From Escherichia coli (GTDB lineage: Bacteria; Pseudomonadota; Gammaproteobacteria; Enterobacterales; Enterobacteriaceae), in assembly GCF_044647545.1 (NCBI RefSeq), contig NZ_CP172818.1: a DNA stretch of 64,000 nucleotides, one strand, 5' to 3'. Below are positions 4,106 to 56,861 of the stretch, piece after piece. The translations under genes were made by a program, and so were the position numbers. Positions within the stretch are counted from its first letter, which is position 1, and every line of letters starts with the position of its first letter. The notes under the pieces are model-generated. The model was not told the DNA's origin, ran no database searches, and saw nothing but the letters and a program-made list of their open reading frames with translations.

Positions 4106-4206
4106 AATAAAATGAACTTCATAGAATAGTATCCAAATGTGCTTTTTTTTGGATAACGGCACTTATTGATATATTCATGAAGATTATAATCACAAGGGAA
4201 TACATA

Positions 4207-5402: not shown

Positions 5403-5913
5403 TTGGCATTTCATCTCCATCTGCGGCACACGCAATTGCCGAAGCATATCGATACAGCACCTTACCCTGCCCCTCCTGGCACAATAACATCAACCAGCTA
5501 CTCTTCAAGCTAACACCCAAATGCATTTCTTTATGAATTAATCCGTAACAAACACGCTTCCCATATAGAAATATTTGCAAAAATAGTGCATGAAATAAGC
5601 TTTTTCTCTACCAATCCGCGATATAAATATTCATCAGCACCACAATATTCCACAGCACTAAATCTCTCCCCGCCACCCCGTACCTCTGATAATGGTCTAA
5701 AATCATTGAGGCCACTTGCGACGACGTTACTCAATAAGGAAAATTTGGCGTGAATAATATTCAACACCAGTGCAGCATCATCATTACATACTTACACCCG
5801 CCGACTACCGCTTTCGATATATTGACTCAATTTTCCAGCCTGGTTAAAAATAGCGACCAGCTCAGTCGCAAATATAGTGACTACCCTAACTAAGCAACAA
5901 TAAGGAATACACT

Positions 5914-11453: not shown

Positions 11454-12104
11454 TTGGCGATTCGTCTTCATAAACTGGCTGTTGCTTTAGGCGTCTTTAT
11501 TGTTAGCGCTCCTGCCTTTTCGCATGGTCATCACTCACACGGCAAACCCTTAACAGAGGTCGAACAAAAAGCTGCTAATGGTGTTTTTGATGATACCAAT
11601 GTACAAAACCGAACGCTCAGTGACTGGGATGGAGTCTGGCAATCCGTTTATCCTTTACTGCAAAGTGGCAAACTTGACCCCGTCTTTCAGAAGAAAGCGG
11701 ATGCAGATAAAACCAAAACATTTGCTGAAATTAAAGATTATTATCGCAAAGGTTATGTGACAGATATCGAGATGATTGGCATTGAGGACGGCATTGTTGA
11801 ATTCCATAGACATAATGAAACAACATCCTGTAAATATGATTACGATGGATACAAAATACTCACCTATAAATCAGGCAAGAAAGGCGTTCGTTACTTATTC
11901 GAATGTAAAGATCCTGAAAGCAAAGCCCCTAAATATATTCAATTTAGCGATCATATAATTGCACCACGAAAATCATCTCATTTTCACATTTTTATGGGTA
12001 ATGATACCCAACAGTCTTTATTGAATGAAATGGAAAACTGGCCAACGTATTATCCATATCAGTTGAGTAGCAAAGAAGTGGTCGAGGAGATGATGTCTCA
12101 TTGA
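11454..12104 (+). CDS. zinT: Periplasmic zinc/cadmium-binding protein
   Basis: 216-aa ORF with signal peptide and His-rich HGHHSHG motif. Confidence 0.85.
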
Positions 12105-12191
12105 TTTTTTGCGCTGACTTCAATTATTTAACAGAACAGTGCCTGGTAGTAACGACAATAATTTACCAAGACAAATAAATAAGACAAACTC

Positions 12192-12225
12192 AGACACGCT
12201 CATGCTTGAGACGTGTCTTTTTTAT
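12192..12225 (+). terminator. Rho-independent terminator after zinT
   Basis: AGACACG...CGTGTCT hairpin followed by TTTTTTATT. Confidence 0.6.
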
Positions 12226-32989: not shown

Positions 32990-33733
32990 TTATAGCAGTG
33001 CCAGCAGGAAGACCAGTTCACCAAGCTCTATGGCTGCTCCCAGCGTATCGCCGGTTTGCCCGCCCAGCGTACGTTTGAGAAGCTGACCGAGGATGAAAAT
33101 CGCCACCATCGTCACCACCATAGCAGCCACACCATGCATACCCGGCAATAATACGGCAGCAAAAATAGCGGCTAAGCCGAGTGTGACGCAGGTTTGTCGC
33201 CCATCAATTTTGCCAATGAACACATTGCCAAGCCCTTCTTCCCGGGCATAACGATGACGATACATCAATAATGCGGCAGTCCCGCGGCTGATCGCACATG
33301 CTGCCGCCAGCGATGCAAGGATCGGTTCGCCACGCAGAGCCAACTCGCTTAACACCAAAATCTTTGCCAGTACAACAAAAATCAATGCCAGACCGCCGTG
33401 GGTACCTAAACGGCTATCACGCATGATTTCCAACATGCGATCGCGGCTACGTGCAGAAAATACGCCATCACAGGTATCAGCGAGGCCGTCCAGATGGAAT
33501 CCCCCGGTCATCAGCACCAGCACAAGTACGCTAAACAGTGCCGCCAGTGGTGCGCCACACCATGCCTGCAGCACCATGAAGACCAGCCCGCTAATCGCGC
33601 CAAGCAATAATCCAATCAAAGGAAAAGTAATAATACCGCGAGAATAATGCTCGAAATCCAGTCCCTGGGACCAGCGACGCGGTACAGGCAGACGCGTAAT
33701 AAATGAGAGCATCGCCCAAAATAATTTACTCAT
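32990..33733 (-). CDS. cobS: Cobalamin 5'-phosphate synthase
   Basis: Polytopic ORF, internal start [16 protein letters not shown]... Confidence 0.85.
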
Positions 33734-34275
33734 TTGATTTTTACTCCAATACCCGAAACCACCAGCCATACTTCATTTGCCGCAGCGGCCAACTGCTGAT
33801 TTACCCGCCCGGCAATATCACGAAAATGTCGTGCCAGACGACTCTCCGGCACAATCCCCATTCCCACTTCGTTAGTCACTAATACAACCTTTGCGGGGCA
33901 ACGTTGGCAGGCAGCAATCAACGACTGAATCTCAGCATTAATCGCCTGTTCCATCGCCTGATAATCCCATTCATCAGGGTCTTTATCGCCGCCATAATCA
34001 AACAACAGATTAGTCACCATTGTGGTAACGCATTCAAGCAACACAACCTCATTCGGGTTAATGTCTGCATGAATTAATTCATCAAGATGTTGCCAGCGCT
34101 CCACTGTGCGCCAGTGCTCCGGGCGGCCTTGCCGATGATGTTCTATCCGTGCAGCCATCTCATCATCAAGGATTTGCGAGGTAGCGATATACAGAACCTG
34201 TGAAGAGTCCCCAATAAGCGCCTCTGCGTGGCGACTCTTCCCGCTCCGTGCGCCCCCCGTCACCAAAATCATCAT
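33730..34275 (-). CDS. cobU: Adenosylcobinamide kinase / adenosylcobinamide-phosphate guanylyltransferase
   Basis: 181-aa ORF with P-loop GGARSGKS. Confidence 0.85.
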
Positions 34276-35691
34276 ACCGACTCCTGATTCAAATGTATGA
34301 TGGTATTCATTGAACAGAACAATGGATCCCCCACCGTTGCTGACCGCAAAACATTTACGCGATTAATACTGCGCGTAATATAATTAAAAATCCAGCATTC
34401 TCAATCCATTACGAAATAAGATGGCATTACGGAATAGCCAGACTTTCTCGTGTTAACGTCCGACAAAATGCGTCATTGACAGCGGTTTCTGTGGATTGAC
34501 ACATTTCATTCAGATAATGAATTAATGCTACTGCCGGAACAACCAGCAAACGGGCATTGTGTTCTGAAATCCAGGCTATTGATTCAACGTCAGCGACAGA
34601 TCTGCGCTGTAAAAGAACTTGTAAAACAACGTAATAGAATTATCCGGAATGGTGGCCTAGAACACCACAATTTCGCTCTCTCGGTAAGGCACTGTCACAG
34701 CATTCAACAGAATGTGACTTGCCAGATTTATTAGCGCCACCAGATGTTTAACCGGGTAACCACGACCCAGTCGGGGATATATTCCATCTTCTCGCTGACA
34801 TCATCAAGAATAAAAAGGTTTATCACACTCAGAGCAACGTTCTTCAGCAGGCGGGATAATTCTTCAACATTTAGAAGATGTGTTATTAAAGGCATACAAA
34901 CTGGACGTATTGTATTTTCTTTTGGTGGTTGACCTAAGGTAGCAGTTTATCCTGATGCGCTGAGATTTCTGTAATATCTACGTCAACATTCTCCTCGAAT
35001 AGAAAATGCAGCCCCGGCAAGTGATTCACATTTTTTAACAAAACGTTGTTAGCGTGCCATTTTCAGAAGCTCTCCAAGAAAGCGAATTCTTTTCTCAAAT
35101 TCTGCATTCTCAGACACAGCTTTCTACTCCATGGTAATGGCCCAAATACGAAGTTGCTCAGGATCATTAGTGGTGCTGAGAAGTTAAATAACCATGCGGA
35201 GTACCACTCGTCATCACGTATTTATATATCATGAAGCTATTGTTGTGTTTTGTACATCAGTAGATATATTCTGATATACTCCTTTTGCTAGACATAACCT
35301 TTCACCTGCTTGCAAAGCTTCTGTGTTCTGACATTGCCAAATTGTTGCAATTCTGTATCCAGCCTTCTTTCAGTCATAGCTTCGGGCCGCGATAAGACTC
35401 ACTGATCTGACCCTGATTCCTCTTGCAGACTTTATAGACCAATTAAAATGCAGTTTCTGCAGGTCAACGTCTGACCATCATTGTCATCACTCTGGCCATT
35501 AGAGTAACCTTCTGCATTCATCCTTTTGTAAAAAGTTTATATTAGTATCAGCAATTAACCGGACCTGATACTGATATGAGTCTTACCGCATATACGGTCA
35601 ATTTCAGCAATTAATTACATTATCCACGCCAAAGTATTTGTCATCACAATGATGGTACCTTCTTTCAGACACCATTTTTTCAACTCCGTTT

Positions 35692-35732
35692 TCCACGGAC
35701 CGCACTCTTATGTCAAGAGTGCGGTCCGTGGA
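35692..35732. repeat. Perfect 18-bp inverted repeat with 5-nt spacer
   Basis: TCCACGGACCGCACTCTT-atgtc-AAGAGTGCGGTCCGTGGA; no T-run after it. Confidence 0.9.
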
Positions 35733-35883
35733 TACAACCAGAGACCGACTGACACGAGTCAGAGGAAACGACGGATATGTTCAGTCGTAAAATATCTATC
35801 AAAAAACATGATTAAGGTCAAAAATGTTTGATATTTACAATTTATGAAGATGACAATAATTATAGATATATGAGAACATAAAT

Positions 35884-35904
35884 GAAAATAATTATCATTA
35901 CAGC
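35884..35904 (+). promoter_or_regulatory. Fur-box-like sequence upstream of TonB-dependent receptor gene
   Basis: GAAAATAATTATCATTACAGC resembles Fur consensus GATAATGATAATCATTATC. Confidence 0.35.
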
Positions 35905-36254
35905 AATCATTTGTACTTTGTATTAATGAGGGATGAAATGTTATATAATATACCTTGTCGAATTTATATCCTTTCCACTCTGTCATTATGCATTTCTGGG
36001 ATAGTTTCTACTGCAACCGCAACTTCTTCAGAAACAAAAATCAGCAACGAAGAGACGCTCGTCGTGACCACGAATCGTTCGGCAAGCAACCTTTGGGAAA
36101 GCCCGGCGACTATACAGGTTATTGACCAACAAACATTGCAGAACTCCACCAATGCCTCCATAGCCGATAATTTGCAGGACATCCCCGGAGTAGAGATAAC
36201 AGACAACTCCTTGGCAGGCCGTAAACAAATCCGCATTCGTGGCTGGATTTGCCC

Positions 36255-37160
36255 CTATATTTCCAGACATCTGTTATCACTTAACCCATTACAAGCCCGC
36301 TGCCGCAGATATTCCCGTGGCGAGCGATAACCCAGCGCACTATGCGGATGCCATTCGTTATAATGCTCGAACGCCTCTGCAAGGTTCTTTGCTGCCGTTA
36401 ACCCGTCTGGTTTGGGCATGATACTGATGTAGTCACGCTTTATCGTTTTCACGAAGCTCTCTGCTATTCCGTTACTCTCCGGACTCCGCACCGCCGTGTT
36501 CTTCGGTTCAAGTCCCAACATCCGGGCGAACTGGCGTGTTTCATTAGCCCGGTAGCATGAACCATTATCCGTCAGCCACTCCACTGGAGACGACGGAAGA
36601 TCGTTGCCGAAGCGGCGTTCCACCGCTCCCAGCATGACGTCCTGTACTGTTTCACTGTTGAAGCCGCCGGTAGTGACCGCCCAGTGCAGTGCCTCACGAT
36701 CACAGCAGTCCAGCGCGAACGTGACACGCAGTCTCTCTCCGTTATCACAGCAGAACTCGAACCCGTCAGAGCACCATCGCTGATTGCTTTCTTTCACGGC
36801 CACTCTGCCTGTATGTGCCCGTTTCGATGGCGGTACAGCAGGTTTTCGCTCAAGCAACAGCGCATTCTGGCGCATGATCCGGTAAACACGTTTGGCATTG
36901 ATCGCAGGCATACCATCAAGTTCTGCCTGTCTGCGAAGCAGCGCCCATACCCGACGATAACCATACGTTGGCAGCTCTCCGATAACATGGTGTATACGGA
37001 GAAGCACATCCGTATCATCAGTGTGACGACTGCGGCGGCCATCCATCCAGTCATCGGTTCGTCTGAGAATGACGTGCAACTGCGCACGCGACACCCGGAG
37101 ACAACGGCTGACTAAGCTTACTCCCCATCCCCGGGCAATAAGGGCGCGTGCGCTATCCAC
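36255..37160 (-). CDS. insD: IS2 transposase OrfB (DDE integrase domain)
   Basis: 301-aa [33 protein letters not shown]... matches InsD. Confidence 0.9.
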
Positions 37161-37482
37161 TTTTTTGCCCGTCCATATTCAACGGCTTCTTTGAGGAGTT
37201 CATTTTCCATCGTTTTCTTGCCGAGCAGGCGCTGGAGTTCTTTAATCTGCTTCATGGCAGCAGCAAGTTCAGAGGCAGGAACGACCTGTTCTCCGCGGCG
37301 ACAGCAGTAAGACTTCCCCCCTGGATTGCTTGCGCCAGAGAAATAACTGGCTGGCTGCTACACCGTGTTGCCGGGCAACAAGGGAGGCCGTCATTCCCGG
37401 TTCAAAGCTCTGCTGAACAATAGCGCTCTTTTCCTGTGTAGTACGCCGTCTGCGTTTCTCCGGTCCCTAAGACATCAATCAT
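37118..37482 (-). pseudogene. insC: IS2 OrfA (InsC), out of frame in this copy
   Basis: ATG...TAA span is 365 nt (not a multiple of 3); MIDVLG then frame lost; later frames still encode [12 protein letters not shown]...LFLWRKQ and ...[45 protein letters not shown]. Confidence 0.65.
37160..37167 (-). promoter_or_regulatory. IS2 programmed -1 frameshift slippery site (A6G)
   Basis: Minus strand CAAAAAAG at the insC/insD overlap. Confidence 0.6.
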
Positions 37483-37804
37483 CTGTTCTCCAATGACTAA
37501 GTCAAAAACTAGAATATTAAGACTATCACTTATTTAAGTGATATTGGTTGTCTGGAGATTCTGGGGGCTAGTCTAGTGGCGAAGCATCCTCCCGTGTTTT
37601 AATTCTCATTGATGGTCAGGAGGTAACTTATCAGCGCGCCGGAGATAATTATGGTGTGGGACTGTTGATAGATGAGTCTGCGCTGGAGCGTGTTGAGATA
37701 GTGAAAGGTCCATATTCCGTACTGTACGGTTCACAGGCAATTGGCGGTATTGTTAACTTCATCACCAAAAAGGGTGAATCTCCAGACTCCCTATATCACT
37801 TAAA

Positions 37805-38515
37805 TTGATACAACTTTTTAGAGTAGTCATTAGTGAACAGATAATTGATAACTCAGAACCAGTAAAATGCAAAAGACGCACCACGCTGGGAAAATCGCTG
37901 CTATTCAGCAGAGTTTTGTATCGAGAATGGTGGCCAGCCACTTATTGCTCTCGCGTAAGCGGGTACCGTGACATTCTGCCCGAACTGGACCTGGTACTGT
38001 GGCTGATTAAAGCCGATGACCGTGCCCTGTCTGTGGATGAGTATTTCTGGCGACACATCCTGCACCGGGGACATCAGCGGGTACTGTTTGTGGTGATGCA
38101 GGCCGATAAAACGGAGCCCTGCCATGAATGGGATATGGCCGGTATTCAGCCTTCTCCCGCACAGGCACAGAACATTCGCGAAAAAACGGAGGCGGTATTC
38201 CGTCTGTTCCGGCCCGTACATCGGGTTGTTGCCGTATCGGCCCGCACCGGCTGGGAACTGGATACGCTGGTCAGTGCGCTCATGACAGCACTTCCCGACC
38301 ATGCCGCCAGTCCCCTGATGACCCGCCTGCAGGACGAGCTGCGCACGGAATCTGTCCGCGCTCAGGCCCGTGAACAGTTTACCGGTGCGGTGGACCGGAT
38401 ATTTGACACGGCGGAGAGCGCCTGTATTGCCTCTGTTGCACGCACGGTTCTGCGTGCCGTCCGTGACTCGGTGGTCTCTGTTGCCCGCGCGGTATGGAAC
38501 TGGATTTTCTTCTGA
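37805..38515 (+). pseudogene. yeeP: Prophage GTPase-like protein, N-terminally truncated (no P-loop)
   Basis: 236-aa ORF matches the C-terminal part of YeeP-type GTP-binding proteins; no GxxxxGK[ST] motif present. Confidence 0.55.
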
Positions 38516-38609
38516 ACCGGTGGTGACTGATGCCCTCCCTGACTCTGAGTCTGCTCACAAAAGCACTGTTTTCGTTACTGTCTCTCTTGTCCGTGCAATA
38601 GCTCAATAA

Positions 38610-38818
38610 TAGAATAAAACGATCAATATCTATTTTATCGATCGTTTATATCGATCGATAAGCTAATAATAACCTTTGTCAGTAACATGCACAGATACGT
38701 ACAGAAAGACATTCAGGGAACAACAGAACCACAATTCAGAAACTCCCACAGCCGGACCTCCGGCACTGTAACCCTTTACCTGCCGGTATCCACGTTTGTG
38801 GGTACCGGCTTTTTTATT
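38610..38818 (+). ncRNA. isrC: Small RNA IsrC region (5' leader upstream of flu); boundaries approximate
   Basis: Position between yeeP and flu; ends at intrinsic terminator CCGGTATCCAC-gttt-GTGGGTACCGG plus T6 (38780..38818). Confidence 0.4.
38621..38656 (+). promoter_or_regulatory. Three GATC sites (Dam/OxyR phase-variation switch of Ag43)
   Basis: GATC at 38621, 38640 and 38653 within aacGATCaatatctattttatcGATCgtttatatcGATCgataag, about 200 bp upstream of flu. Confidence 0.75.
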
Positions 38819-38842
38819 CACCCTCAATCTAAGGAAAAGCTG

Positions 38843-41800
38843 ATGAAACGACATCTGAATACCTGCTACAGGCTGGTATGGAATCACATGACGGGCGCTT
38901 TCGTGGTTGCCTCCGAACTGGCCCGCGCACGGGGTAAACGTGGCGGTGTGGCGGTTGCACTGTCTCTTGCCGCAGTCACGTCACTCCCGGTGCTGGCTGC
39001 TGACATCGTTGTGCACCCGGGAGAAACCGTGAACGGCGGAACACTGGCAAATCATGACAACCAGATTGTCTTCGGTACGACCAACGGAATGACCATCAGT
39101 ACCGGGCTGGAGTATGGGCCGGATAACGAGGCCAATACCGGCGGGCAATGGGTACAGGATGGCGGAACAGCCAACAAAACGACTGTCACCAGTGGTGGTC
39201 TTCAGAGAGTGAACCCCGGTGGAAGTGTCTCAGACACGGTTATCAGTGCCGGAGGCGGACAGAGCCTTCAGGGACGGGCTGTGAACACCACGCTGAATGG
39301 TGGCGAACAGTGGATGCATGAGGGGGCGATAGCCACAGGAACCGTCATTAATGATAAGGGCTGGCAGGTCGTCAAGCCCGGTACAGTGGCAACGGATACC
39401 GTTGTTAATACCGGGGCGGAAGGGGGACCGGATGCAGAAAACGGTGATACCGGGCAGTTTGTTCGCGGGGATGCCGTACGCACAACCATCAATAAAAACG
39501 GTCGCCAGATTGTGAGAGCTGAAGGAACGGCAAATACCACTGTGGTTTATGCCGGCGGCGACCAGACTGTACATGGTCACGCACTGGATACCACGCTGAA
39601 TGGGGGATACCAGTATGTGCACAACGGCGGTACAGCGTCTGACACTGTTGTGAACAGTGACGGCTGGCAGATTGTCAAAAACGGGGGTGTGGCCGGGAAT
39701 ACCACCGTTAATCAGAAGGGCAGACTGCAGGTGGACGCCGGTGGTACAGCCACGAATGTCACCCTGAAGCAGGGCGGCGCACTGGTTACCAGTACGGCTG
39801 CAACCGTTACCGGCATAAACCGCCTGGGAGCATTCTCTGTTGTGGAGGGTAAAGCTGATAATGTCGTACTGGAAAATGGCGGACGCCTGGATGTGCTGAC
39901 CGGACACACAGCCACTAATACCCGCGTGGATGATGGCGGAACGCTGGATGTCCGCAACGGTGGCACCGCCACCACCGTATCCATGGGAAATGGCGGTGTA
40001 CTGCTGGCCGATTCCGGTGCCGCTGTCAGTGGTACCCGGAGCGACGGAAAGGCATTCAGTATCGGAGGCGGTCAGGCGGATGCCCTGATGCTGGAAAAAG
40101 GCAGTTCATTCACGCTGAACGCCGGTGATACGGCCACGGATACCACGGTAAATGGCGGACTGTTCACCGCCAGGGGCGGCACACTGGCGGGCACCACCAC
40201 GCTGAATAACGGCGCCATACTTACCCTTTCCGGGAAGACGGTGAACAACGATACCCTGACCATCCGTGAAGGCGATGCACTCCTGCAGGGAGGCTCTCTC
40301 ACCGGTAACGGCAGCGTGGAAAAATCAGGAAGTGGCACACTCACTGTCAGCAACACCACACTCACCCAGAAAGCCGTCAACCTGAATGAAGGCACGCTGA
40401 CGCTGAACGACAGTACCGTCACCACGGATGTCATTGCTCAGCGCGGTACAGCCCTGAAGCTGACCGGCAGCACTGTGCTGAACGGTGCCATTGACCCCAC
40501 GAATGTCACTCTCGCCTCCGGTGCCACCTGGAATATCCCCGATAACGCCACGGTGCAGTCGGTGGTGGATGACCTCAGCCATGCCGGACAGATTCATTTC
40601 ACCTCCACCCGCACAGGGAAGTTCGTACCGGCAACCCTGAAAGTGAAAAACCTGAACGGACAGAATGGCACCATCAGCCTGCGTGTACGCCCGGATATGG
40701 CACAGAACAATGCTGACAGACTGGTCATTGACGGCGGCAGGGCAACCGGAAAAACCATCCTGAACCTGGTGAACGCCGGCAACAGTGCGTCGGGGCTGGC
40801 GACCAGCGGTAAGGGTATTCAGGTGGTGGAAGCCATTAACGGTGCCACCACGGAGGAAGGGGCCTTTGTCCAGGGGAACAGGCTGCAGGCCGGTGCCTTT
40901 AACTACTCCCTCAACCGGGACAGTGATGAGAGCTGGTATCTGCGCAGTGAAAATGCTTATCGTGCAGAAGTCCCCCTGTATGCCTCCATGCTGACACAGG
41001 CAATGGACTATGACCGGATTGTGGCAGGCTCCCGCAGCCATCAGACCGGTGTAAATGGTGAAAACAACAGCGTCCGTCTCAGCATTCAGGGCGGTCATCT
41101 CGGTCACGATAACAATGGCGGTATTGCCCGTGGGGCCACGCCGGAAAGCAGCGGCAGCTATGGATTCGTCCGTCTGGAGGGTGACCTGATGAGAACAGAG
41201 GTTGCCGGTATGTCTGTGACCGCGGGGGTATATGGTGCTGCTGGCCATTCTTCCGTTGATGTTAAGGATGATGACGGCTCCCGTGCCGGCACGGTCCGGG
41301 ATGATGCCGGCAGCCTGGGCGGATACCTGAATCTGGTACACACGTCCTCCGGCCTGTGGGCTGACATTGTGGCACAGGGAACCCGCCACAGCATGAAAGC
41401 GTCATCGGACAATAACGACTTCCGCGCCCGGGGCTGGGGCTGGCTGGGCTCACTGGAAACCGGTCTGCCCTTCAGTATCACTGACAACCTGATGCTGGAG
41501 CCACAACTGCAGTATACCTGGCAGGGACTTTCCCTGGATGACGGTAAGGACAACGCCGGTTATGTGAAGTTCGGGCATGGCAGTGCACAACATGTGCGTG
41601 CCGGTTTCCGTCTGGGCAGCCACAACGATATGACCTTTGGCGAAGGCACCTCATCCCGTGCCCCCCTGCGTGACAGTGCAAAACACAGTGTGAGTGAATT
41701 ACCGGTGAACTGGTGGGTACAGCCTTCTGTTATCCGCACCTTCAGCTCCCGGGGAGATATGCGTGTGGGGACTTCCACTGCAGGCAGCGGGATGACGTTC

Positions 41801-41962
41801 TCTCCCTCACAGAATGGCACATCACTGGACCTGCAGGCCGGACTGGAAGCCCGTGTCCGGGAAAATATCACCCTGGGCGTTCAGGCCGGTTATGCCCACA
41901 GCGTCAGCGGCAGCAGCGCTGAAGGGTATAACGGTCAGGCCACACTGAATGTGACCTTCTGA
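38843..41962 (+). CDS. flu: Antigen 43 self-associating autotransporter adhesin
   Basis: 1039-aa ORF from MKRHLNTCYRLVWNHMTGAFVVASELARARG (extended signal peptide), beta-helical passenger repeats, C-terminal beta-barrel ending ...QATLNVTF. Confidence 0.9.
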   Translation: MKRHLNTCYRLVWNHMTGAFVVASELARARGKRGGVAVALSLAAVTSLPVLAADIVVHPGETVNGGTLANHDNQIVFGTTNGMTISTGLEYGPDNEANTGGQWVQDGGTANKTTVTSGGLQRVNPGGSVSDTVISAGGGQSLQGRAVNTTLNGGEQWMHEGAIATGTVINDKGWQVVKPGTVATDTVVNTGAEGGPDAENGDTGQFVRGDAVRTTINKNGRQIVRAEGTANTTVVYAGGDQTVHGHALDTTLNGGYQYVHNGGTASDTVVNSDGWQIVKNGGVAGNTTVNQKGRLQVDAGGTATNVTLKQGGALVTSTAATVTGINRLGAFSVVEGKADNVVLENGGRLDVLTGHTATNTRVDDGGTLDVRNGGTATTVSMGNGGVLLADSGAAVSGTRSDGKAFSIGGGQADALMLEKGSSFTLNAGDTATDTTVNGGLFTARGGTLAGTTTLNNGAILTLSGKTVNNDTLTIREGDALLQGGSLTGNGSVEKSGSGTLTVSNTTLTQKAVNLNEGTLTLNDSTVTTDVIAQRGTALKLTGSTVLNGAIDPTNVTLASGATWNIPDNATVQSVVDDLSHAGQIHFTSTRTGKFVPATLKVKNLNGQNGTISLRVRPDMAQNNADRLVIDGGRATGKTILNLVNAGNSASGLATSGKGIQVVEAINGATTEEGAFVQGNRLQAGAFNYSLNRDSDESWYLRSENAYRAEVPLYASMLTQAMDYDRIVAGSRSHQTGVNGENNSVRLSIQGGHLGHDNNGGIARGATPESSGSYGFVRLEGDLMRTEVAGMSVTAGVYGAAGHSSVDVKDDDGSRAGTVRDDAGSLGGYLNLVHTSSGLWADIVAQGTRHSMKASSDNNDFRARGWGWLGSLETGLPFSITDNLMLEPQLQYTWQGLSLDDGKDNAGYVKFGHGSAQHVRAGFRLGSHNDMTFGEGTSSRAPLRDSAKHSVSELPVNWWVQPSVIRTFSSRGDMRVGTSTAGSGMTFSPSQNGTSLDLQAGLEARVRENITLGVQAGYAHSVSGSSAEGYNGQATLNVTF

Positions 41963-42076
41963 CAGAACCATCGCCTCTCTGTGGTCCCGGTCATCATGAC
42001 CGGGACCCGGACCGGCGCAACGGATCTTCAACGCCACATTCGCTGGCATTAACAATAACATGATATTCATCACGGA

Positions 42077-43615
42077 GTGACTATGTTACAGATAGTCGGC
42101 GCGCTGATCCTGCTGATCGCAGGATTTGCCATTCTTCGCCTTTTGTTCAGAGCATTAATCAGCACGGCTTCTGCGCTGGCAGGGCTCATATTGCTGTGTC
42201 TGTTCGGCCCGGCCTTACTGGCTGGCTATATCACCGAACGCATAACCCGGTTGTTCCATATTCGCTGGCTGGCAGGCGTATTTCTGACGATTGCCGGAAT
42301 GATCATCAGCTTCATGTGGGGACTTGATGGTAAACATATCGCGCTGGAGGCTCACACCTTTGACTCTGTGAAATTTATTCTGACCACCGCTCTCGCCGGT
42401 GGTCTGCTGGCTGTTCCCCTGCAGATCAAAAACATTCAGCAGAACGGGATCACACCAGAAGATATCAGCAAGGAAATTAACGGGTATTACTGCTGTTTTT
42501 ATACTGCCTTTTTCCTTATGGCGTGTTCTGCATGCGCACCATTGATCGCGTTACAGTACGATATTTCACCGTCACTGATGTGGTGGGGCGGGTTGTTGTA
42601 CTGGCTGGCTGCATTAGTGACGCTGCTATGGGCGGCCAGCCAGATCCAGGCGCTGAAAAAACTGACCTGTGCCATCAGCCAGACACTGGAAGAACAACCG
42701 GTGCTCAACAGTAAATCGTGGCTGACCAGTTTGCAAAACGATTACAGCCTTCCTGACTCACTGACGGAGCGCATCTGGCTGACGCTCATTTCTCAACGGA
42801 TTTCCCGGGGAGAGCTGAGGGAATTTGAACTGGCAGACGGAAACTGGTTACTGAACAATGCCTGGTATGAAAGAAACATGGCAGGGTTTAACGAACAGTT
42901 GAAAGAGAACCTGTCATTCACACCTGATGAACTGAAAACGCTCTTCCGGAACCGCCTGAATTTATCACCGGAAGCGAATGACGATTTTCTCGATCGTTGC
43001 CTGGACGGCGGTGACTGGTATCCCTTTTCAGAAGGTCGCCGTTTTGTATCATTCCATCACGTGGATGAGCTTCGTATCTGTGCCTCCTGCGGGCTGACAG
43101 AAGTACATCATGCCCCGGAAAATCATAAGCCGGATCCGGAATGGTACTGCTCCTCTCTTTGTCGCGAAACAGAAACACTGTGTCAGGAAATTTATGAACG
43201 CCCTTACAACAGCTTTATTTCCGATGCAACGGCGAATGGTCTGATTCTCATGAAACTGCCGGAAACCTGGAGTACAAATGAGAAAATGTTTGCTTCCGGA
43301 GGGCAGGGACATGGGTTTGCCGCTGAACGGGGAAACCATATTGTCGACAGAGTCCGTCTGAAAAACGCACGGATCCTCGGTGATAATAATGCCAGAAATG
43401 GAGCAGACAGACTGGTCAGCGGAACAGAAATCCAGACGAAATATTGTTCAACTGCAGCCCGTAGCGTCGGTGCGGCATTCGACGGACAAAACGGACAGTA
43501 TCGTTACATGGGAAATAATGGCCCCATGCAACTGGAAGTCCCCCGTGATCAGTATGCCGGCGCTGTTGAAACCATGAGGAATAAGATCCGCGAAGGTAAA
43601 GTAGAGGAGCGATGA
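42077..43615 (+). CDS. yeeR: Prophage inner-membrane protein of unknown function with Cys-rich C-terminal region
   Basis: 512-aa ORF; N-terminal TM helices; CASCG...CSSLC motif. Confidence 0.75.
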   Translation: MTMLQIVGALILLIAGFAILRLLFRALISTASALAGLILLCLFGPALLAGYITERITRLFHIRWLAGVFLTIAGMIISFMWGLDGKHIALEAHTFDSVKFILTTALAGGLLAVPLQIKNIQQNGITPEDISKEINGYYCCFYTAFFLMACSACAPLIALQYDISPSLMWWGGLLYWLAALVTLLWAASQIQALKKLTCAISQTLEEQPVLNSKSWLTSLQNDYSLPDSLTERIWLTLISQRISRGELREFELADGNWLLNNAWYERNMAGFNEQLKENLSFTPDELKTLFRNRLNLSPEANDDFLDRCLDGGDWYPFSEGRRFVSFHHVDELRICASCGLTEVHHAPENHKPDPEWYCSSLCRETETLCQEIYERPYNSFISDATANGLILMKLPETWSTNEKMFASGGQGHGFAAERGNHIVDRVRLKNARILGDNNARNGADRLVSGTEIQTKYCSTAARSVGAAFDGQNGQYRYMGNNGPMQLEVPRDQYAGAVETMRNKIREGKVEER

Positions 43616-44058
43616 CGCCCGGCGAGCGCAGTCTCATTCAGCGGGCCCTGAAAACCCTGGACCGCCATCTTCATGAACCCGGCGTGCCCTTCACCTCCAC
43701 CCGTGCGGCACGGGAATGGCTGATTCTGAACATGGCGGGACTGGAGCGTGAAGAATTCCGGGTGCTGTATCTGAATAACCAGAATCAGCTGATTGCCGGT
43801 GAAACCCTCTTCACCGGCACCATCAACCGCACGGAAGTCCATCCCCGGGAAGTGATTAAACGCGCCCTGTATCACAATGCCGCTGCCGTGGTGCTGGCAC
43901 ACAATCACCCGTCCGGTGAAGTCACACCCAGCAAGGCAGACTGCCTTATCACGGAACGTCTGGTACAGGCACTGGGCCTGGTGGATATCCGGGTGCCGGA
44001 CCATCTGATAGTCGGTGGCAACCAGGTTTTCTCCTTTGCCGAACATGGTCTGCTTTAA
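43612..44058 (+). CDS. yeeS: RadC-like JAMM-domain protein
   Basis: 148-aa ORF with HNHPSGE JAMM motif. Confidence 0.8.
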   Translation: MTPGERSLIQRALKTLDRHLHEPGVPFTSTRAAREWLILNMAGLEREEFRVLYLNNQNQLIAGETLFTGTINRTEVHPREVIKRALYHNAAAVVLAHNHPSGEVTPSKADCLITERLVQALGLVDIRVPDHLIVGGNQVFSFAEHGLL

Positions 44059-44120
44059 CCCGTCACAACCACATCACACCTGTTTTCACTTTTATCTTCT
44101 GTCTTCAGAGGTATCCCACT

Positions 44121-44342
44121 ATGAAAATTATCACCCGTGGCGAAGCCATGCGTATTCACCGTCAGCATCCGGCATCCCGTCTTTTTCCGTTCTGTACCGG
44201 CAAATACCGCTGGCACGGCAGTGCTGAAGCTTATACCGGTCGTGAAGTGCAGGATATTCCCGGTGTGCTGGCCGTGTTTGCCGAACGCCGTAAGGACAGT
44301 TTTGGTCCGTATGTCCGGCTGATGAGCGTCACCCTGAACTGA
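44121..44342 (+). CDS. yeeT: DUF987-family small protein
   Basis: 73-aa ORF MKIITRGEAMRIHRQHPASRLFPFCTGKYRWHGSAEAYTGREV... Confidence 0.75.
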   Translation: MKIITRGEAMRIHRQHPASRLFPFCTGKYRWHGSAEAYTGREVQDIPGVLAVFAERRKDSFGPYVRLMSVTLN

Positions 44343-44416
44343 AAGTGGGAATTCTGCTCATCAGAATTATCACCACTACCGAACCATTCTTACCGATTTT
44401 CTGTAAGGATTTTATC

Positions 44417-44785
44417 GTGTCAGACACACTCTCCGGGACAACACATCCCGACGACAATCACGACCACCCCTGGTGGGGACTACCCTGCACCGTGACGCCC
44501 TGTTTCGGCGCCCGTCTGGTGCAGGAGGGTAACCGCTTGCATTACCTTGCCGACCGCGCCGGTAACAGAGGCCTGTTCAGCGATGCAGATGCGTACCCCC
44601 TGGACCAGGCCTTTCCGCTGCTGATGAAACAACTGGAACTCATGCTCACCAGCGGTGAACTGAATCCCCGCCATCAGCATACCGTCACACTGTATGCGAA
44701 GGGGCTGACCTGTGAAGCTGACACCCTCGGCAGCTGTGGTTACGTTTATCTGGCTGTTTATCCGACGCCCGAAACGAAAAATTAA
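44417..44785 (+). CDS. cbeA: Type IV antitoxin (cytoskeleton bundling-enhancing factor)
   Basis: GTG start; VSDTLSGTTHPDDNHDHPWWGLPCTVTPCFGARLVQEGNRLHYLADRAG... matches CbeA/YeeU. Confidence 0.8.
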   Translation: MSDTLSGTTHPDDNHDHPWWGLPCTVTPCFGARLVQEGNRLHYLADRAGNRGLFSDADAYPLDQAFPLLMKQLELMLTSGELNPRHQHTVTLYAKGLTCEADTLGSCGYVYLAVYPTPETKN

Positions 44786-44873
44786 CCCACCGGAATAACC
44801 TTCTGCTCCGGCCTGGTGCTTTCACCACGCCACTTTTCCATTTTTATCTCTGCATATCAGGAAAATCTTCAGT

Positions 44874-45246
44874 ATGAAAACATTACCCGTATTACCCGGG
44901 CAGGCGGCGTTCTCGCCCGTCTCCTGTTACCATCTGGCAGATACTGCTCACCCGATTACTGGACCAGCACTACAGCCTTACGCTGAATGACACACCGTTC
45001 GCCGATGAACGCGTGATTGAGCAGCATATTGAGGCAGGCATTTCACTGTGTGATGCAGTGAACTTTCTCGTGGAAAAATACGTACTGGTACAACTGACCA
45101 GCCGGGATTCAGCGCCGGAACCCGTCTCAGTTAATCAACAGCATTGATATCCTCCGGGCTCGCCGGGCAACCGGTCTGATGACCCGCAGCAACTACAGAA
45201 CGGTAAATAACATTACCCTGGGTAAGTATCCGGAGGCGAAAAATGA
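44874..45246 (+). pseudogene. cbtA: Type IV toxin CbtA (YeeV), frameshifted at least twice
   Basis: [12 protein letters not shown] then frame lost; second frame [54 protein letters not shown]; third frame DILRARRATGLMTR.NYRTVNNITLGKYPEAK runs into yeeW. Confidence 0.7.
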
Positions 45247-45439
45247 AATGACGCTGGAAGCCGACAGCGTTAACGTACAGGCGCTGGATATGGGGCACAT
45301 TGTCGTTGACGTCGATGGTGTTAATCTCACTGAACTGATTAATAAAGCCGCTGAAAACGGTTATTCACTCCGCGTGGTGGATGACCGTGACACTACCGAA
45401 ACACCGGCAACTTCTGCCAGCCCTCATCAGTTGCCGTAA
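45247..45439 (+). CDS. yeeW: Small prophage protein
   Basis: MTLEADSVNVQALDMGHIVVDVDGVNLTELINKAAENGYSLRVVDDRD...; in this sequence its frame is continuous with the last cbtA fragment. Confidence 0.6.
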
Positions 45440-45479
45440 GACAATACAGTGATACAGAGTATAATGCCATTAGCCACAG

Positions 45480-45492
45480 AAAAAAAAAAAAA
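45480..45492. repeat. A13 homopolymer
   Basis: 13 consecutive A downstream of yeeW. Confidence 0.9.
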
Positions 45493-45605
45493 CAGCACTG
45501 TTGTCCTGTATTAAACAGGCAAGAGAAGATATCCATACCCTGCGCCATCTGCAGCTTCTGCACCAGAACCGGTGAATCTCACTCAACAGACTTCATTTCC
45601 CCTGA

Positions 45606-45637
45606 CGCCAGCCTGAATACAGCTGGCGTTTTCATTT
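45606..45637 (+). terminator. Intrinsic-terminator-like hairpin
   Basis: CGCCAGC-ctgaataca-GCTGGCG followed by TTTTCATTT. Confidence 0.45.
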
Positions 45638-45733
45638 ATATACAGAAAGGAAAACCGATAATAATGGAATGGACGCCCCGACCATGAAGCAACGGTAGGA
45701 TATTACTGATAAACCTTCCAGTGGAGGTGCGTT

Positions 45734-45813
45734 ATGGCCGTTTTAACGATTAGCATTGACCTGACAAAAAATGAATTCCAAATCCACGGTCTGGGTAGGA
45801 ACAGAAAAATCTA
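45734..45813 (+). pseudogene. N-terminal remnant of an IS110-family-like transposase (26 codons then stop)
   Basis: MAVLTISIDLTKNEFQIHGLGRNRKI resembles the xGIDxxKxxFQ.HG start of IS110-family transposases. Confidence 0.35.
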
Positions 45814-45889
45814 AGCTCAGAAAACGGATTAAAGTAAGCGTCAACGGAGCACCATATTGACGCTTATTTATTGGTGAGAACTACGTTCC

Positions 45890-46246
45890 ATGGCAGGAGT
45901 TCGTCAACACGGTTGGAGGGCCATTCCGGCAGTATGCTCAGAATATGGCGCAGATACGCTTCCGGATCGATACCGTTCAGACGGCAGGTGCCTGCTTTTC
46001 CGGCAACAAGCAGGAATCTCAGCGCTGAAGCAGGAATTAGAGGTAAAAACGCCCTACCGGGCCATGAATCACCCGGTCATTGGAGTAGTAACCAAAGCAG
46101 ATTTAGCCAGCATGGAACAAATATCTTTGGTGAAATGTTGGTTACGGGAAGCTGGAGCGCACAACGTGTTAGTAACCAGTGCGGTTAATAACAATGGAGT
46201 TACAGAACTTTTTGCCTTGCTGCATACAGAAGAAGGCTGCCGCTAA
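45890..46246 (+). pseudogene. yoeF: EutP/PduV-family GTPase C-terminal fragment
   Basis: 118-aa ORF ending ...HPVIGVVTKADLASMEQISLVKCWLREAGAHNVLVTSAVNNNGVTELFALL; lacks N-terminal P-loop. Confidence 0.55.
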
Positions 46247-46346
46247 TTTCGATAGGTTCTCAGATGAGAATGATGACGGTGATACACAGATAAGAATCAA
46301 TGAGCAATGAGGGTTGCCGGGCAACCCTCATTGAATAAAACAGGAA

Positions 46347-46676
46347 TTACTTCGCTTCGCCGTTTTTCATTTCGCCCATAGCTTTCAGCTTTTTGGAGAT
46401 ATCGCGGCGTTCTTTGGAGAGCTCGGCATTTTTGATGATGTAATCGTCAACGCGATCTTCATAGTCACCTTTCATGCTGGCGATGATGCCCTGGATTGCT
46501 TCAACGCTCATCCCTGGCTTGATGTAATCGCTCAGGTTGTCCAGCAACAGGACGCGCTTCTGGTTGTCACGGATCTTTTTCTCAACGTCCTGAATTTCAC
46601 GTTGCAGTTTGTTCTTACGACGGAACAGACGAACAAATTCCAGTACGTCCTGGAATGAAGGCTTGGTAGTTTCCAT
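46347..46676 (-). CDS. yeeX: DUF496-family protein
   Basis: Internal start [42 protein letters not shown]... Confidence 0.8.
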
Positions 46677-46847
46677 TTTTATACCCCTGATAATGTGAGA
46701 GTCGGATTCGTTTAAGCAACCGCTATTCGATAGGGCCAACATTACTCATAGCTGCCGCAGATGACAATGCTTTTATCCCTTTTCACTATCATACCCTTTA
46801 TCCTTGCTGAATCGAAGCAGCAGCAAGATGATTCTGAAGTTCAGGAA

Positions 46848-47906
46848 TTATTTGCGCAAGGCCCGGCAAATCAGATTCGATAGCAACTCAAGCTGATGCG
46901 CCGTTTCCATGTTCAGCCACACATAACCATAGATTGGTGTTTCCACAACCTTCAGGTCATGGTGGTTATTAAGCAACAGACGCAGCTCTTCCACAGCATC
47001 GTTCAATTTTTCCGTATTGGCAAAAACCGGCTGCGGATTACCTTCGTACAGCGCATGAACAAGGCTCAGCAGTATTTGCTGCATCATGTGCTGGGTATCA
47101 CGAAGTTTTTGCGCGTTCAATAACACGAAATGGCTGGGGCGCGTGGCCCAGTATGCATTGATTTGCAACTCCAGCATACAAACCAGATTGCGGTTAATGG
47201 TCTGGATACCTTCATATATCGATTTTGGAATACGGGTTTCTTTGCTGGCGGGCGCAATCAGCCCACGCATTTTCACGGCATCGGTCAGCAGTTTTTGTAG
47301 ATGGCTTTCCAGACGTGGGCGTTCGAGTAAGTTCGGTGAGAATGCAGATTGATAGACCCGATTATACTCGGTCAGACTTTTCGCCAGTTGAATGCGCCAG
47401 TGGATGAACGCCCGTTGTGGCCAGATACCGGTAAACAACATTGCCAGTAAAGAGCCGAGGATCACATCGCCGCTTCGCCATAACGCCGTATCAATTTCAC
47501 CTGTCGGGGAACCCACAACAATTGCCAGCGTCACCCCAATCAATAATCCTTGATACGGTTTCTTGCCCAGCGCCAGCCAACCGCAAAGAAACATCGCCGC
47601 CGCGCACCAGACTAACATCAGCGGTAACGAAATTAACTCCAGTTGCAGAGCGATAAGACCTAAAATCGAACCCAACACCGTACCGCCAATACGTTCGAAG
47701 GCACGAGGGACAACGTTCCCCCAGAACGAGATTGGCCCCATAATCACCACCATGGTGACCAGCGGCCAGGTGCTTTCCGGGATAGTAAACAGGCGGATAA
47801 TGAGAAAAGTGAGCAGGAATGCCAGCGCGACCCGAGTACCATGCACAATGCGGTAATGGCGGTATACCCGGATTTCAAACGGGCTTAATGACTTATCGGC
47901 ACGCAC
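46848..47906 (-). CDS. yeeA: FUSC-like inner-membrane protein
   Basis: 352-aa polytopic ORF matching YeeA. Confidence 0.8.
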   Translation of the reverse strand: MRADKSLSPFEIRVYRHYRIVHGTRVALAFLLTFLIIRLFTIPESTWPLVTMVVIMGPISFWGNVVPRAFERIGGTVLGSILGLIALQLELISLPLMLVWCAAAMFLCGWLALGKKPYQGLLIGVTLAIVVGSPTGEIDTALWRSGDVILGSLLAMLFTGIWPQRAFIHWRIQLAKSLTEYNRVYQSAFSPNLLERPRLESHLQKLLTDAVKMRGLIAPASKETRIPKSIYEGIQTINRNLVCMLELQINAYWATRPSHFVLLNAQKLRDTQHMMQQILLSLVHALYEGNPQPVFANTEKLNDAVEELRLLLNNHHDLKVVETPIYGYVWLNMETAHQLELLSNLICRALRK

Positions 47907-50070: not shown

Positions 50071-51498
50071 ATGATGAATGACGGTAAGCAACAACCTACC
50101 TTTTTCTTTCACGATTACGAAACCTTTGGAACGCACCCCGCGTTAGATCGCCCTGCACAGTTCGCAGCCATTCGCACTGATAACGAATTCAATGTCATCG
50201 GCGAACCCGAAGTCTTTTACTGCAAGCCCGCGGATGACTATTTACCCCAGCCTGGAGCAGTATTAATTACCGGTATTACCCCGCAGGAAGCACGGGCGAA
50301 AGGAGAAAACGAAGCCGCGTTTGCCGCCCGTATTCACTCGCTTTTTACCGTACCGAAGACCTGTATTCTGGGCTACAACAATGTGCGTTTCGACGATGAA
50401 GTCACACGCAACGTTTTTTATCGTAATTTCTACGATCCTTACGCCTGGAGCTGGCAGCATGATAACTCGCGCTGGGATTTACTGGATGTTATGCGTGCCT
50501 GTTATGCCCTGCGCCCGGAAGGAATAAACTGGCCTGAAAATGATGACGGTCTACCGAGCTTTCGCCTTGAGCATTTAACCAAAGCGAATGGTATTGAACA
50601 TAGCAACGCCCACGATGCGATGGCTGATGTGTACGCCACTATTGCGATGGCGAAACTGGTAAAAACGCGTCAGCCACGCCTGTTTGATTATCTCTTTACC
50701 CATCGTAATAAACACAAACTGATGGCGTTGATTGATGTTCCGCAGATGAAACCCCTGGTTCACGTTTCCGGAATGTTTGGGGCATGGCGTGGCAATACCA
50801 GCTGGGTGGCACCGCTGGCGTGGCATCCTGAAAATCGCAATGCCGTAATTATGGTGGATTTGGCAGGAGACATTTCACCATTACTGGAGCTGGATAGCGA
50901 CACATTGCGCGAGCGTTTATATACCGCAAAAGCCGATCTTGGCGATAACGCCGCCGTTCCGGTTAAGCTGGTGCATATCAATAAATGTCCGGTACTGGCC
51001 CAGGCGAATACGCTACGCCCGGAAGACGCTGAGCGTTTAGGGATTGCTCGTCAACACTGCCTGGATAACCTGAAAGTGTTGCGCGAAAACCCGCAAGTAC
51101 GCGACAAAGTTGTGGCAATTTTTGCAGAAGCTGAACCGTTTACACCATCAGATAATGTAGATGCACAGCTTTATAATGGCTTTTTTAGCGACGCCGATCG
51201 TGCAGCAATGAAAATCGTGCTGGAGACTGAACCGCGTAATTTACCGGCTCTGGATATCACCTTTGTTGATAAGCGTATCGAGAAACTCCTGTTCAACTAC
51301 CGCGCCCGCAACTTCCCCGGCACGTTAGATGACAACGAGCAGCAACGCTGGCTTGAGCACCGCCGCCAGGTCTTCACACCCGAGTTTTTACAAGGCTATG
51401 CAGAAGAGATTCAGATGCTGGCGCAGCTGTATGCCGACGATAAAGAAAAAGTGGCGCTGTTAAAAGCGCTTTGGCAGTACGCGGAAGAGATTGTCTAA
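50071..51498 (+). CDS. sbcB: Exodeoxyribonuclease I
   Basis: Internal start MMNDGKQQPTFFFHDYETFG... (DEDDh exonuclease); track ORF extended 16 aa upstream. Confidence 0.85.
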   Translation: MMNDGKQQPTFFFHDYETFGTHPALDRPAQFAAIRTDNEFNVIGEPEVFYCKPADDYLPQPGAVLITGITPQEARAKGENEAAFAARIHSLFTVPKTCILGYNNVRFDDEVTRNVFYRNFYDPYAWSWQHDNSRWDLLDVMRACYALRPEGINWPENDDGLPSFRLEHLTKANGIEHSNAHDAMADVYATIAMAKLVKTRQPRLFDYLFTHRNKHKLMALIDVPQMKPLVHVSGMFGAWRGNTSWVAPLAWHPENRNAVIMVDLAGDISPLLELDSDTLRERLYTAKADLGDNAAVPVKLVHINKCPVLAQANTLRPEDAERLGIARQHCLDNLKVLRENPQVRDKVVAIFAEAEPFTPSDNVDAQLYNGFFSDADRAAMKIVLETEPRNLPALDITFVDKRIEKLLFNYRARNFPGTLDDNEQQRWLEHRRQVFTPEFLQGYAEEIQMLAQLYADDKEKVALLKALWQYAEEIV

Positions 51499-51540
51499 TG
51501 TGAAGCCTCCGCCGCTGGTACGGCGGAGGACAATTTTGAG

Positions 51541-56443: not shown

Positions 56444-56582
56444 CCGTTATCTCCTGATACACCTAAGATCTATAAGGCTACGCTAGCGTATCAAAACTGA
56501 CAATTCATTCTATGAATGAGACGTTCATACCACACAAGAAAATTATGAGAGAAAGATCAATATTGAACTTTACCAACATTTG

Positions 56583-56618
56583 TAGACCAGATAAGGCATT
56601 CACGCCGCATCCGGCAGG
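56583..56618. repeat. REP element
   Basis: Reverse complement CCTGCCGGATGCGGCGTGAATGCCTTATCTGGTCTA matches REP consensus. Confidence 0.6.
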
Positions 56619-56861
56619 AACCAAAGCCCACTTTAGTTACAGAACACAATGTTCTTGAGGGTTTTAAAGACATATTTTCACGATTTCTTTTCTAACGTAG
56701 TCAAAACCACCTAACGCCAGTCACTCCAGGCCCCCTCCTTTCCCCGCTCATTCATTAAACAAATCCATTGCCATAAAATATATAAAAAAGCCCTTGCTTT
56801 CTAACGTGAAAGTGGTTTAGGTTAAAAGACATCAGTTGAATAAACATTCACAGAGACTTTT

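Follow-up and report, generated by a model that had tools for sequence, protein, structure and literature searches.

Is the block of flu and yee genes that lies between cobU and tmaR on an Escherichia coli chromosome (NZ_CP172818.1; the 64,000-nucleotide stretch that was analysed is called the window below) the cryptic element CP4-44 of E. coli K-12, can it still move, and which of its genes are likely to work? CP4-44, the phase variation of the adhesin antigen 43 (Ag43, encoded by flu, also named agn43) and the CbtA/CbeA pair are textbook features of K-12, and the prefix 'CP4' means cryptic P4-like. An annotation made from the letters of the window, the sequence-only reading, had matched the block to CP4-44, described it as lacking an integrase and consisting mostly of degraded genes, and proposed phase-variable autoaggregation as its main retained function. 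The comparisons presented here make it very probable that the block is the CP4-44 locus of a K-12-related E. coli chromosome, where it is a fixed, non-mobile remnant of a distal 'flu + yee' module.

Locus identity, ends and the pdu scar

From dcm to hisIE the whole window runs collinear with the chromosome of K-12, at ∼98% identity. The relationship is mosaic: the blocks 33,500-37,250 and 38,523-43,500 are near-identical to K-12, and the remaining blocks are 1-9% different. Positions 34656-55000 align collinearly, at 98.1% identity, with the CP4-44 region of K-12 (strain J53, NZ_CP028702.1), and over 37,000-47,000 no complete RefSeq E. coli genome comes closer than K-12 (98.1%). Of the 5,426 complete E. 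coli genomes, 716 share 80% or more of the 10-kb arrangement. Alignment and the annotation of NZ_CP028702.1 confirm the position between cobU and yeeX/tmaR, with a left flank (cobT-cobS-cobU) and a right flank (tmaR-yeeA-sbmC-dacD-sbcB) that match K-12 exactly. The gene order yoeA::IS2, yeeP, isrC, flu, yeeR, yeeS, yeeT, cbeA, cbtA, yeeW, yoeD, yoeF is kept in full. Because both the cobU/tmaR flanks and the point at which the insertion sequence (IS) IS2 entered yoeA are the same, the block is the orthologous CP4-44 locus itself, between cobU and tmaR/yeeX, and not a look-alike island.

Look-alikes do abound: the 10-kb query matches a median of nine places per E. coli genome, and paralogous copies of the module are therefore common. 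That the block is such a CP4-44-like paralogue elsewhere on the chromosome, for example at a pheV-, leuX- or thrW-type site, is nevertheless refuted by the synteny of the flanks, and the junction debris also matches K-12 (the IS2 site, the IS3-family fragment against 'yeeP and the order 'DUF957-IS110 stub-IS66-pduV'), leaving that explanation with almost no probability. One element of the K-12 left end is missing: IS5 (insH6), which in K-12 sits inside the IS4-family fragment (K-12 contig L001, 4449-5657), has no counterpart at window position 34656. This is a strain difference and gives no reason to reject orthology.

The items listed by the sequence-only reading were each found where it had put them and in K-12 order, among them a truncated yeeP GTPase gene (homology to full-length genes is absent before 37963), a RadC-like yeeS, a frameshifted cbtA and an IS110-like stub, whose N-terminus is shared with IS110-family pseudogenes annotated by the Prokaryotic Genome Annotation Pipeline (PGAP). 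Its description of the genes as mostly degraded also holds: cbtA is decayed, and truncation or a frameshift affects yeeP, yeeR, yoeA, the DUF957 gene and each of the four IS pieces. The extent it gave, 37805-46250, does not. The foreign block spans 34572-46063, ∼11.5 kb, with a start ∼3.2 kb further left and a right end that excludes yoeF; the additional DNA comprises the IS4-family fragment, an AT-rich spacer, yoeA::IS2 and the IS3-family end that cuts yeeP. These limits come from the alignment to island-lacking genomes that had been proposed as a check. Against a pdu-bearing strain the ends fall at 34571 / 46064, and against the empty site at 34463 / 46072. In the latter configuration, seen in a metagenome-assembled E. 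coli scaffold that joins window position 34463 directly to 46072 and in 531 of the 5,426 complete genomes, the block is lacking altogether. Across E. coli the site thus exists in three states: pdu-bearing, empty and, as in the window, island-bearing.

The pdu-bearing state identifies the sequences that abut the block. At this site strain CUVET19-1704 carries cobU, a small hypothetical open reading frame (ORF), a cobalamin riboswitch, pocR, pduF, pduA to pduV and tmaR. Its full-length pduV product covers positions 1-142 of the Pfam PduV-EutP profile, and homology of the gene to the window begins at 46064; yoeF covers only the C-terminal third of the profile (positions 86-142 of 143). The earlier description of yoeF as an EutP-like fragment is therefore correct, while its assignment to the island is not, as it is a relic of host pduV. 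Neither a full-length PduV nor the upstream pdu genes were found in the window. On the left, homology of the cbiP' region to pdu-bearing E. coli ends at 34571, and that to empty-site genomes at 34463. The 47-residue cbiP' product has no Pfam or NCBIfam match and was identified by DNA homology to annotated copies; PGAP labels the K-12 orthologue 'cobalamin biosynthesis protein, missing N-terminus'. Compared with the cbi-pdu locus of pdu-positive E. coli, the window flanks cbiP' and pduV' are its two ends, pocR, pduF and pduA-pduU are lost, and 11.5 kb of island and IS sequence stands in place of ∼17.6 kb of the pdu strain. The CP4-44 limits of the published K-12 deletion correspond to approximately the whole cobU-tmaR interval (by an approximate conversion of the endpoints in PMC3105296). 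Since these conventional limits take in two host relics, cbiP' and yoeF, the block occupies the scar of a cbi-pdu region loss rather than an attachment site. IS debris bounds it on both sides; to the left this is the IS4-family fragment, and to the right an IS110-family element that an IS66 fragment interrupts. The K-12-type right junction occurs in 3,073 of the 5,426 genomes, which suggests that the insertion is old and fixed and that the interior has since diversified.

It may be asked whether the mosaic and the frameshifts are simply assembly or sequencing artefacts laid over plain K-12 sequence. Several indels do lie in homopolymer runs (A3 to A13 at 45480-45489, for example), and neither the CbeA nor the SbcB protein has an exact match on record. 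However, the indels lie in intergenic DNA and in the diverged blocks of pseudogenes and nowhere else, public genomes very commonly share the DacD allele, and IS5 and yefM-yoeB are cleanly absent. The divergence of the window is natural because substitutions in core genes are strongly biased to the third codon position (ldtA 3/1/27, dacD 0/1/15, plaP 1/0/17 by position) and the frames are open. Artefact is thus a very improbable account of these data.

Integrase, attachment sites and mobility

All 13 proteins of phage P4 were compared with the 64-kb window by tblastn, with nothing better than E=0.027. The best match of the P4 integrase (Int) had E=2.3, in a search whose positive control was the Vis/AlpA query (which found a homologue in E. 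coli contig L004, E=4e-8) and included none for the integrase, and no replication or control gene (alpha, cI, epsilon, delta, psu, sid) fell below E=0.027 in the 64 kb. Comparison of the island proteins with PHROG revealed no phage structural or replication function. The window contains four tRNA-Asn genes, at 13.8, 26.5, 28.4 and 30.8 kb, and beyond these no extra copy of the tRNA-Asn 3' end was found in it with up to three mismatches; nor were direct repeats of at least 16 nt found to bracket the block. The sequence-only reading had reported neither an integrase nor an attachment (att) site, and extension to 64 kb disclosed neither. These data are consistent with published work on K-12, which reported CP4-44 to have no integrase and no detectable excision (Wang et al. 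2010, PMC3105296). The block retains nothing that mobility or a phage life cycle would require.

A still-mobile P4-type prophage or integrative island, with its integrase and att sites just outside 37805-46250, finds some support, as flu and yee modules recur in tRNA-linked islands and related modules elsewhere belong to islands with P4-type integrases at tRNA genes (PMC11537424). The window has four tRNA-Asn genes 7-32 kb upstream, and in strain EC-129 an integrase-bearing integrative and conjugative element (ICE) at asnV reaches within 3 kb of the module. This alternative fails on the lack of any homologue of P4 Int or another P4 protein across the 64 kb and of a second tRNA-Asn 3' end, as well as on the undetectable excision of CP4-44 in K-12 (PMC3105296). 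Moreover, the window is collinear with K-12, in which no integrase is annotated, and its window-specific segments are <600 bp. The EC-129 ICE stops at its own right attachment site (attR), so the module lies outside it. For the window a mobile island with a nearby integrase is excluded, and as an alternative to the fixed remnant proposed here it is scarcely credible.

Ag43 and the yee segment

The part of the block that is most faithfully preserved is the Ag43 cassette. From 38523 to 43500 the promoter, GATC sites, leader, flu and yeeR equal K-12 except for one synonymous change in yeeR. The flu product is a full-length protein of 1039 residues with no difference from that of K-12; it scores 1874.9 bits against the NCBIfam Ag43/Cah equivalog NF033177 (cutoff 1200) and contains the Pfam domains ESPR, AIDA repeats, AC_1 (autochaperone) and Autotransporter beta-domain. 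The full-length Ag43 of the sequence-only reading is therefore upheld, and its proposal of phase-variable Ag43 as the main retained function gains support from the complete identity of the control region and coding sequence to K-12. Three GATC sites (38621, 38640 and 38653) directly follow the promoter-like site, inside isrC, and isrC ends at a terminator-like hairpin (38782-38809) with a T-run, 33 nt before the flu start codon. A hairpin in the leader reportedly causes premature termination, according to published work on the agn43 leader. Given 100% identity to K-12 across promoter, GATC sites, leader and flu, the Ag43 unit is intact and probably works, and Dam/OxyR phase-variable Ag43 would be the function that the block retains.

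In the established model of agn43 control, OxyR bound to unmethylated GATC sites represses flu, and Dam methylation excludes OxyR (PMC3764049). Applied to the window, the sigma-70-like promoter at 38587-38615 would start the leader RNA known as isrC, and the three GATC sites (38621-38656) would lie within the OxyR operator. Were Dam to methylate these sites, OxyR could not bind and flu would be ON; were OxyR to bind first, both methylation and transcription would be blocked and flu would be OFF. Either state would be inherited, with switching at replication, and Ag43, secreted via the type V pathway, would cause the cells to clump.

Downstream of flu the block is shaped by a deletion. Window positions 41900-43603 match positions 217-1920 of a contig (L012) of strain 67-1 at 99.8% identity, and the match then resumes at L012 5257. 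Relative to 67-1, which has a fuller island at the same site, 3,336 bp are therefore missing, and the deletion is common to the window and K-12. It removed the C-terminal 332 residues of an 838-residue protein, the IrmA, DUF905, DUF932 and antirestriction genes, and the first 24 nt of yeeS. yeeR, which differs from K-12 only by the synonymous change and has no Pfam, NCBIfam or PHROG match, is thus itself a product of the deletion. yeeS lost its native 5' end in the same event, the full-length form having 158 residues, and its RadC domain is complete.

The products of yeeS, yeeT, cbeA and yeeW all have strong Pfam matches over their full length. Indels in the block all cluster at 43500-45700 and 37250-37520. 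In cbtA four indels relative to K-12 (−2, −1, −1 and +4) destroy the frame after codon 12 and introduce a stop at codon 39; a single internal ORF of 44 residues alone still matches PF06755. Exact 37-38-mers from this pseudogene are absent from GTDB species representatives and JGI metagenomes. The adjacent cbeA is intact, with nine amino-acid differences from K-12 in 122 residues. The CbtA/CbeA pair is thus broken, with a dead toxin gene and cbeA left as an orphan antitoxin. The yeeS-yeeW block is flanked by K-12-identical DNA, and the simplest reading of its odd allele is recombinational mosaicism in an unsampled lineage.

The survival of cbeA beside a decayed toxin raises a second view of what holds the block in place, namely that it is kept mainly for the surviving yee genes, for instance through an orphan CbeA that counteracts CbtA-family toxins or stabilizes FtsZ/MreB. 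Not only are cbeA, yeeS, yeeT and yeeW open while the toxin decayed by four indels, but substitutions in yeeS, yeeT and cbeA favour the third codon position, which points to purifying selection in the past, and other strains with the same site have swapped flu for dynamin, RdcB and patatin genes yet kept the yee genes. By contrast, the substitutions in cbeA (3, 6 and 12 by codon position) are fairly even and compatible with relaxed constraint, no other part of the block has as many indels as the yee segment, and flu with its switch is the only part conserved at 100%. Retention for the yee genes is, on balance, unlikely. The narrower proposal, that the toxin was lost and cbeA then kept under selection, either for anti-addiction against CbtA-family toxins of other islands or as an FtsZ/MreB stabilizer, we regard as distinctly improbable.

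Several points weigh against the view of the block as a K-12-type CP4-44 remnant that retains a working Ag43. The yeeS-yeeW block (43500-45700) has at most 94.4% identity to any of the 5,426 complete E. coli genomes, and the exact CbeA protein is without a record in the public collection. The function of cbeA, yeeS, yeeT and yeeW in this strain is assumed from their open frames only. No junction from before the insertion survives to show the route by which the block arrived. Finally, dam and oxyR lie outside the window, and the expression, switching and aggregation of Ag43 in this strain are what we infer from the cassette.

Feature list, related loci and comparison with known systems

The features of the block and of its two host edges are collected in Table 1.

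Table 1. Features of the CP4-44 locus in the window, from left to right
Feature	Position	Strand	Remark
cbiP' fragment (cobalamin-biosynthesis pseudogene)	34427..34570	-	Host scar, left edge
IS4-family transposase fragment	~34579..34767	-	Position taken over from the PGAP-annotated strains a7 and GN4554
yoeA' 5' part (TonB-dependent receptor, plug domain)	35938..36243	+	Pfam Plug 1e-07; NCBIfam TonB-receptor matches
IS2 within yoeA	36244..37575	-	Strain a7 has an uninterrupted yoeA
yoeA' 3' part	37575..37775	+	Pfam Plug 5e-12, profile positions 54-107 of 107
IS2-like IS3-family terminal fragment, 188 bp	37776..37963	.	Truncates both yoeA and yeeP
'yeeP, C-terminal 183 codons of island GTPase	37964..38515	+	Homology to full-length GTPase genes from 37963
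flu promoter-like site, TTGTCC-17-TAGAAT	38587..38615	+	Sequence identical to K-12 from 38523 onward
isrC, flu leader RNA	38619..38822	+	Rfam RF00124, 252.6 bits
flu/agn43, Ag43 autotransporter adhesin, full length	38843..41962	+	NF033177, Pfam
yeeR, ~N-terminal 507 residues of 838-residue protein	42083..43615	+	Cut by 3.3-kb deletion
yeeS, RadC-like JAB protein, 148 residues	43612..44058	+	Pfam RadC 1.3e-44
yeeT (DUF987)	44121..44342	+	Pfam 1.5e-40
cbeA (yeeU), type IV antitoxin, open frame	44417..44785	+	PF06154 4.6e-53, profile positions 1-100 of 101
cbtA (yeeV), toxin pseudogene	44874..45248	+	By comparison with the K-12 translation
yeeW (DUF5983), open frame	45251..45439	+	Pfam DUF5983_N 5.3e-29
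'DUF957 fragment	45473..45575	+	PGAP on K-12 orthologue: 'DUF957 domain-containing protein, missing N-terminus'
IS110-family transposase 5' stub	45734..45833	+	Gene already degenerate in all strains examined
IS66-family (ISEc23-like) TnpC C-terminal fragment, 159 bp	45834..45992	-	Pfam DDE_Tnp_IS66_C PF13817 1.5e-15
IS110-family element 3' remnant, 71 bp	45993..46063	+	Abuts pduV' directly
yoeF ('pduV), last 183 nt of host pduV	46064..46246	+	Host scar, right edge

In the left part of the block an AT-rich spacer (34768-35937, GC 34-42%), in which no gene is annotated in K-12, separates the IS4-family fragment from yoeA and contains a perfect 18-bp inverted repeat at 35692-35732. IS2 generated a 5-bp target duplication (overlap 5801-5805 in the comparison with strain a7). 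Its insD is intact (36255-37160), and insC is broken by three frameshifts, with indels at 37295, 37325 and 37464; this copy is probably incapable of making transposase. It is itself a mosaic, with an insD half identical to K-12 and an insC end that is ∼6% diverged. The IS3-family fragment (window 37775-37965) is 100% identical to contig L004 2680-2870 and has an end 90% complementary to the IS2 terminal repeat; positions 37576-37965 align with strain a7 at 99.5% identity, and in a7 an IS3-family pseudogene follows. The 236-residue TTG ORF that starts at 37805 is an extension by the ORF caller into this fragment. yeeP lacks ∼107 N-terminal codons, the P-loop included, and only weak Era-like NCBIfam matches, to the C-terminal half, were obtained.

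At the right end the 'DUF957 fragment contains a 10-A expansion at 45480-45489 (A3 to A13). The 26 codons of the IS110 stub from 45734 are identical to the starts of IS110-family pseudogenes in strains EC-129 and 67-1, and one residue differs in GN4554. The stub has no Pfam or NCBIfam match, and its identity rests on DNA homology to annotated copies; in 67-1 the downstream part of the pseudogene matches Pfam Transposase_20. The IS66 fragment, 93.7-98.7% identical to plasmid IS66/ISEc23 copies, takes the place of the 1,311-bp interior of the IS110-family element that EC-129 and GN4554 keep uninterrupted, and the 3' remnant is 98.5-99% identical to the sequence that follows the element in these two strains.

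Other strains display more elaborate versions of the module at this very site. Fuller forms occur in 67-1, EC-129, NR3736 and Ecol_448, and some strains combine an Ag43/Cah allele with DUF932 and antirestriction genes on the yee backbone. A trio of genes for a dynamin-family protein, RdcB (YjcZ) and a patatin-like phospholipase replaces flu-yeeR in three contigs (L004 20770-25135, L013 1-2303 and L017 19134-21167), and might serve in defence or membrane remodelling as a cassette on the yee backbone. In the stretches examined of NR3736, 67-1, Ecol_448 and a7 no integrase was found. EC-129 carries, to the left of its flu/yee module, an asnV-integrated yersiniabactin ICE-type island (L008 1-3437, L009 and L011) with an integrase, a VirB-type secretion system, MobC, an ABC-three-component system and retron Eco8, and its asnV-to-pduV' interval is without ldtA, cobTSU and yoeA. 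This ICE was considered as an integrase-bearing version of the island and rejected: a degenerate attR of its own, CCAGTCAGGGGAGCCA (L008 3422-3437), terminates it before the GTPase gene, upstream of the GTPase-Ag43 module, and it is a separate element. Two partial matches (H81 and H82), taken as possible paralogous guides to the right end, were likewise rejected; they represent the same locus with extra IS insertions.

Elsewhere in the window several loci differ from K-12. At 56519-56730 yefM-yoeB, which lies between yeeZ and hisL in K-12, is absent, ∼660 bp being replaced by 211 bp of unrelated sequence; the pair is also missing from several other E. coli contigs (L015, L016 and L017). The inverse autotransporter gene yeeJ (14126-20636) is split into two ORFs of 1511 and 525 residues; relative to the 2358-residue K-12 protein, the frame changes near 18631, one repeat (∼105 residues) is lacking and the C-terminus is shorter. 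yodB (cytochrome b) is deleted at 12104-12284, a loss of ∼1 kb relative to K-12, and the K-12 YodB protein has no tblastn match. Conversely, two K-12 pseudogenes are open here, an ompC-like porin gene (4177-5322, 381 residues) and a family-9 glycosyltransferase gene upstream of shiA (20780-21895, 371 residues, sharing 94.6% identity with the translated K-12 pseudogene). The 3' end of sbcB (51000-51500) differs from K-12 at 78 positions in 500 bp, compared with ∼1-2% elsewhere, which suggests an imported segment; the exact SbcB protein of the window is not on record in the public collection.

The identification of the block is correct, and what it identifies is an already known, immobile island remnant. 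Its value is mainly annotational: the CP4-44 limits include host relics, IS debris forms the ends, yeeR resulted from a deletion and nothing in the block is P4-like. Genome surveys should therefore be wary of scoring blocks of this kind as prophages.

Set beside known systems, the block resembles the satellite phage P4 in historical name only, as no homologue of the 13 P4 proteins is present in the window. With the tRNA-integrated islands (GI-pheV and its relatives, and CP4-6 and CP4-57 of K-12) it shares genes for a GTPase, Ag43, RadC, DUF987, CbeA/CbtA, DUF5983 and DUF957; it has none of the P4-type integrase, the tRNA attachment site and the DUF905, DUF932 and antirestriction genes that those islands retain. 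From CP4-44 of K-12 MG1655 it differs in its frameshifted cbtA, which is intact in K-12, in its frameshifted IS2 insC, in a yeeS-yeeW segment that is ∼6% diverged with several indels, and in a yeeP that is ∼3.6% diverged. With that same element it has in common the site, the gene order, the IS2 insertion point, the points at which yeeP, yeeR and the DUF957 gene are truncated, the IS110/IS66 debris, the lack of an integrase, and a flu gene and control region that are 100% identical.

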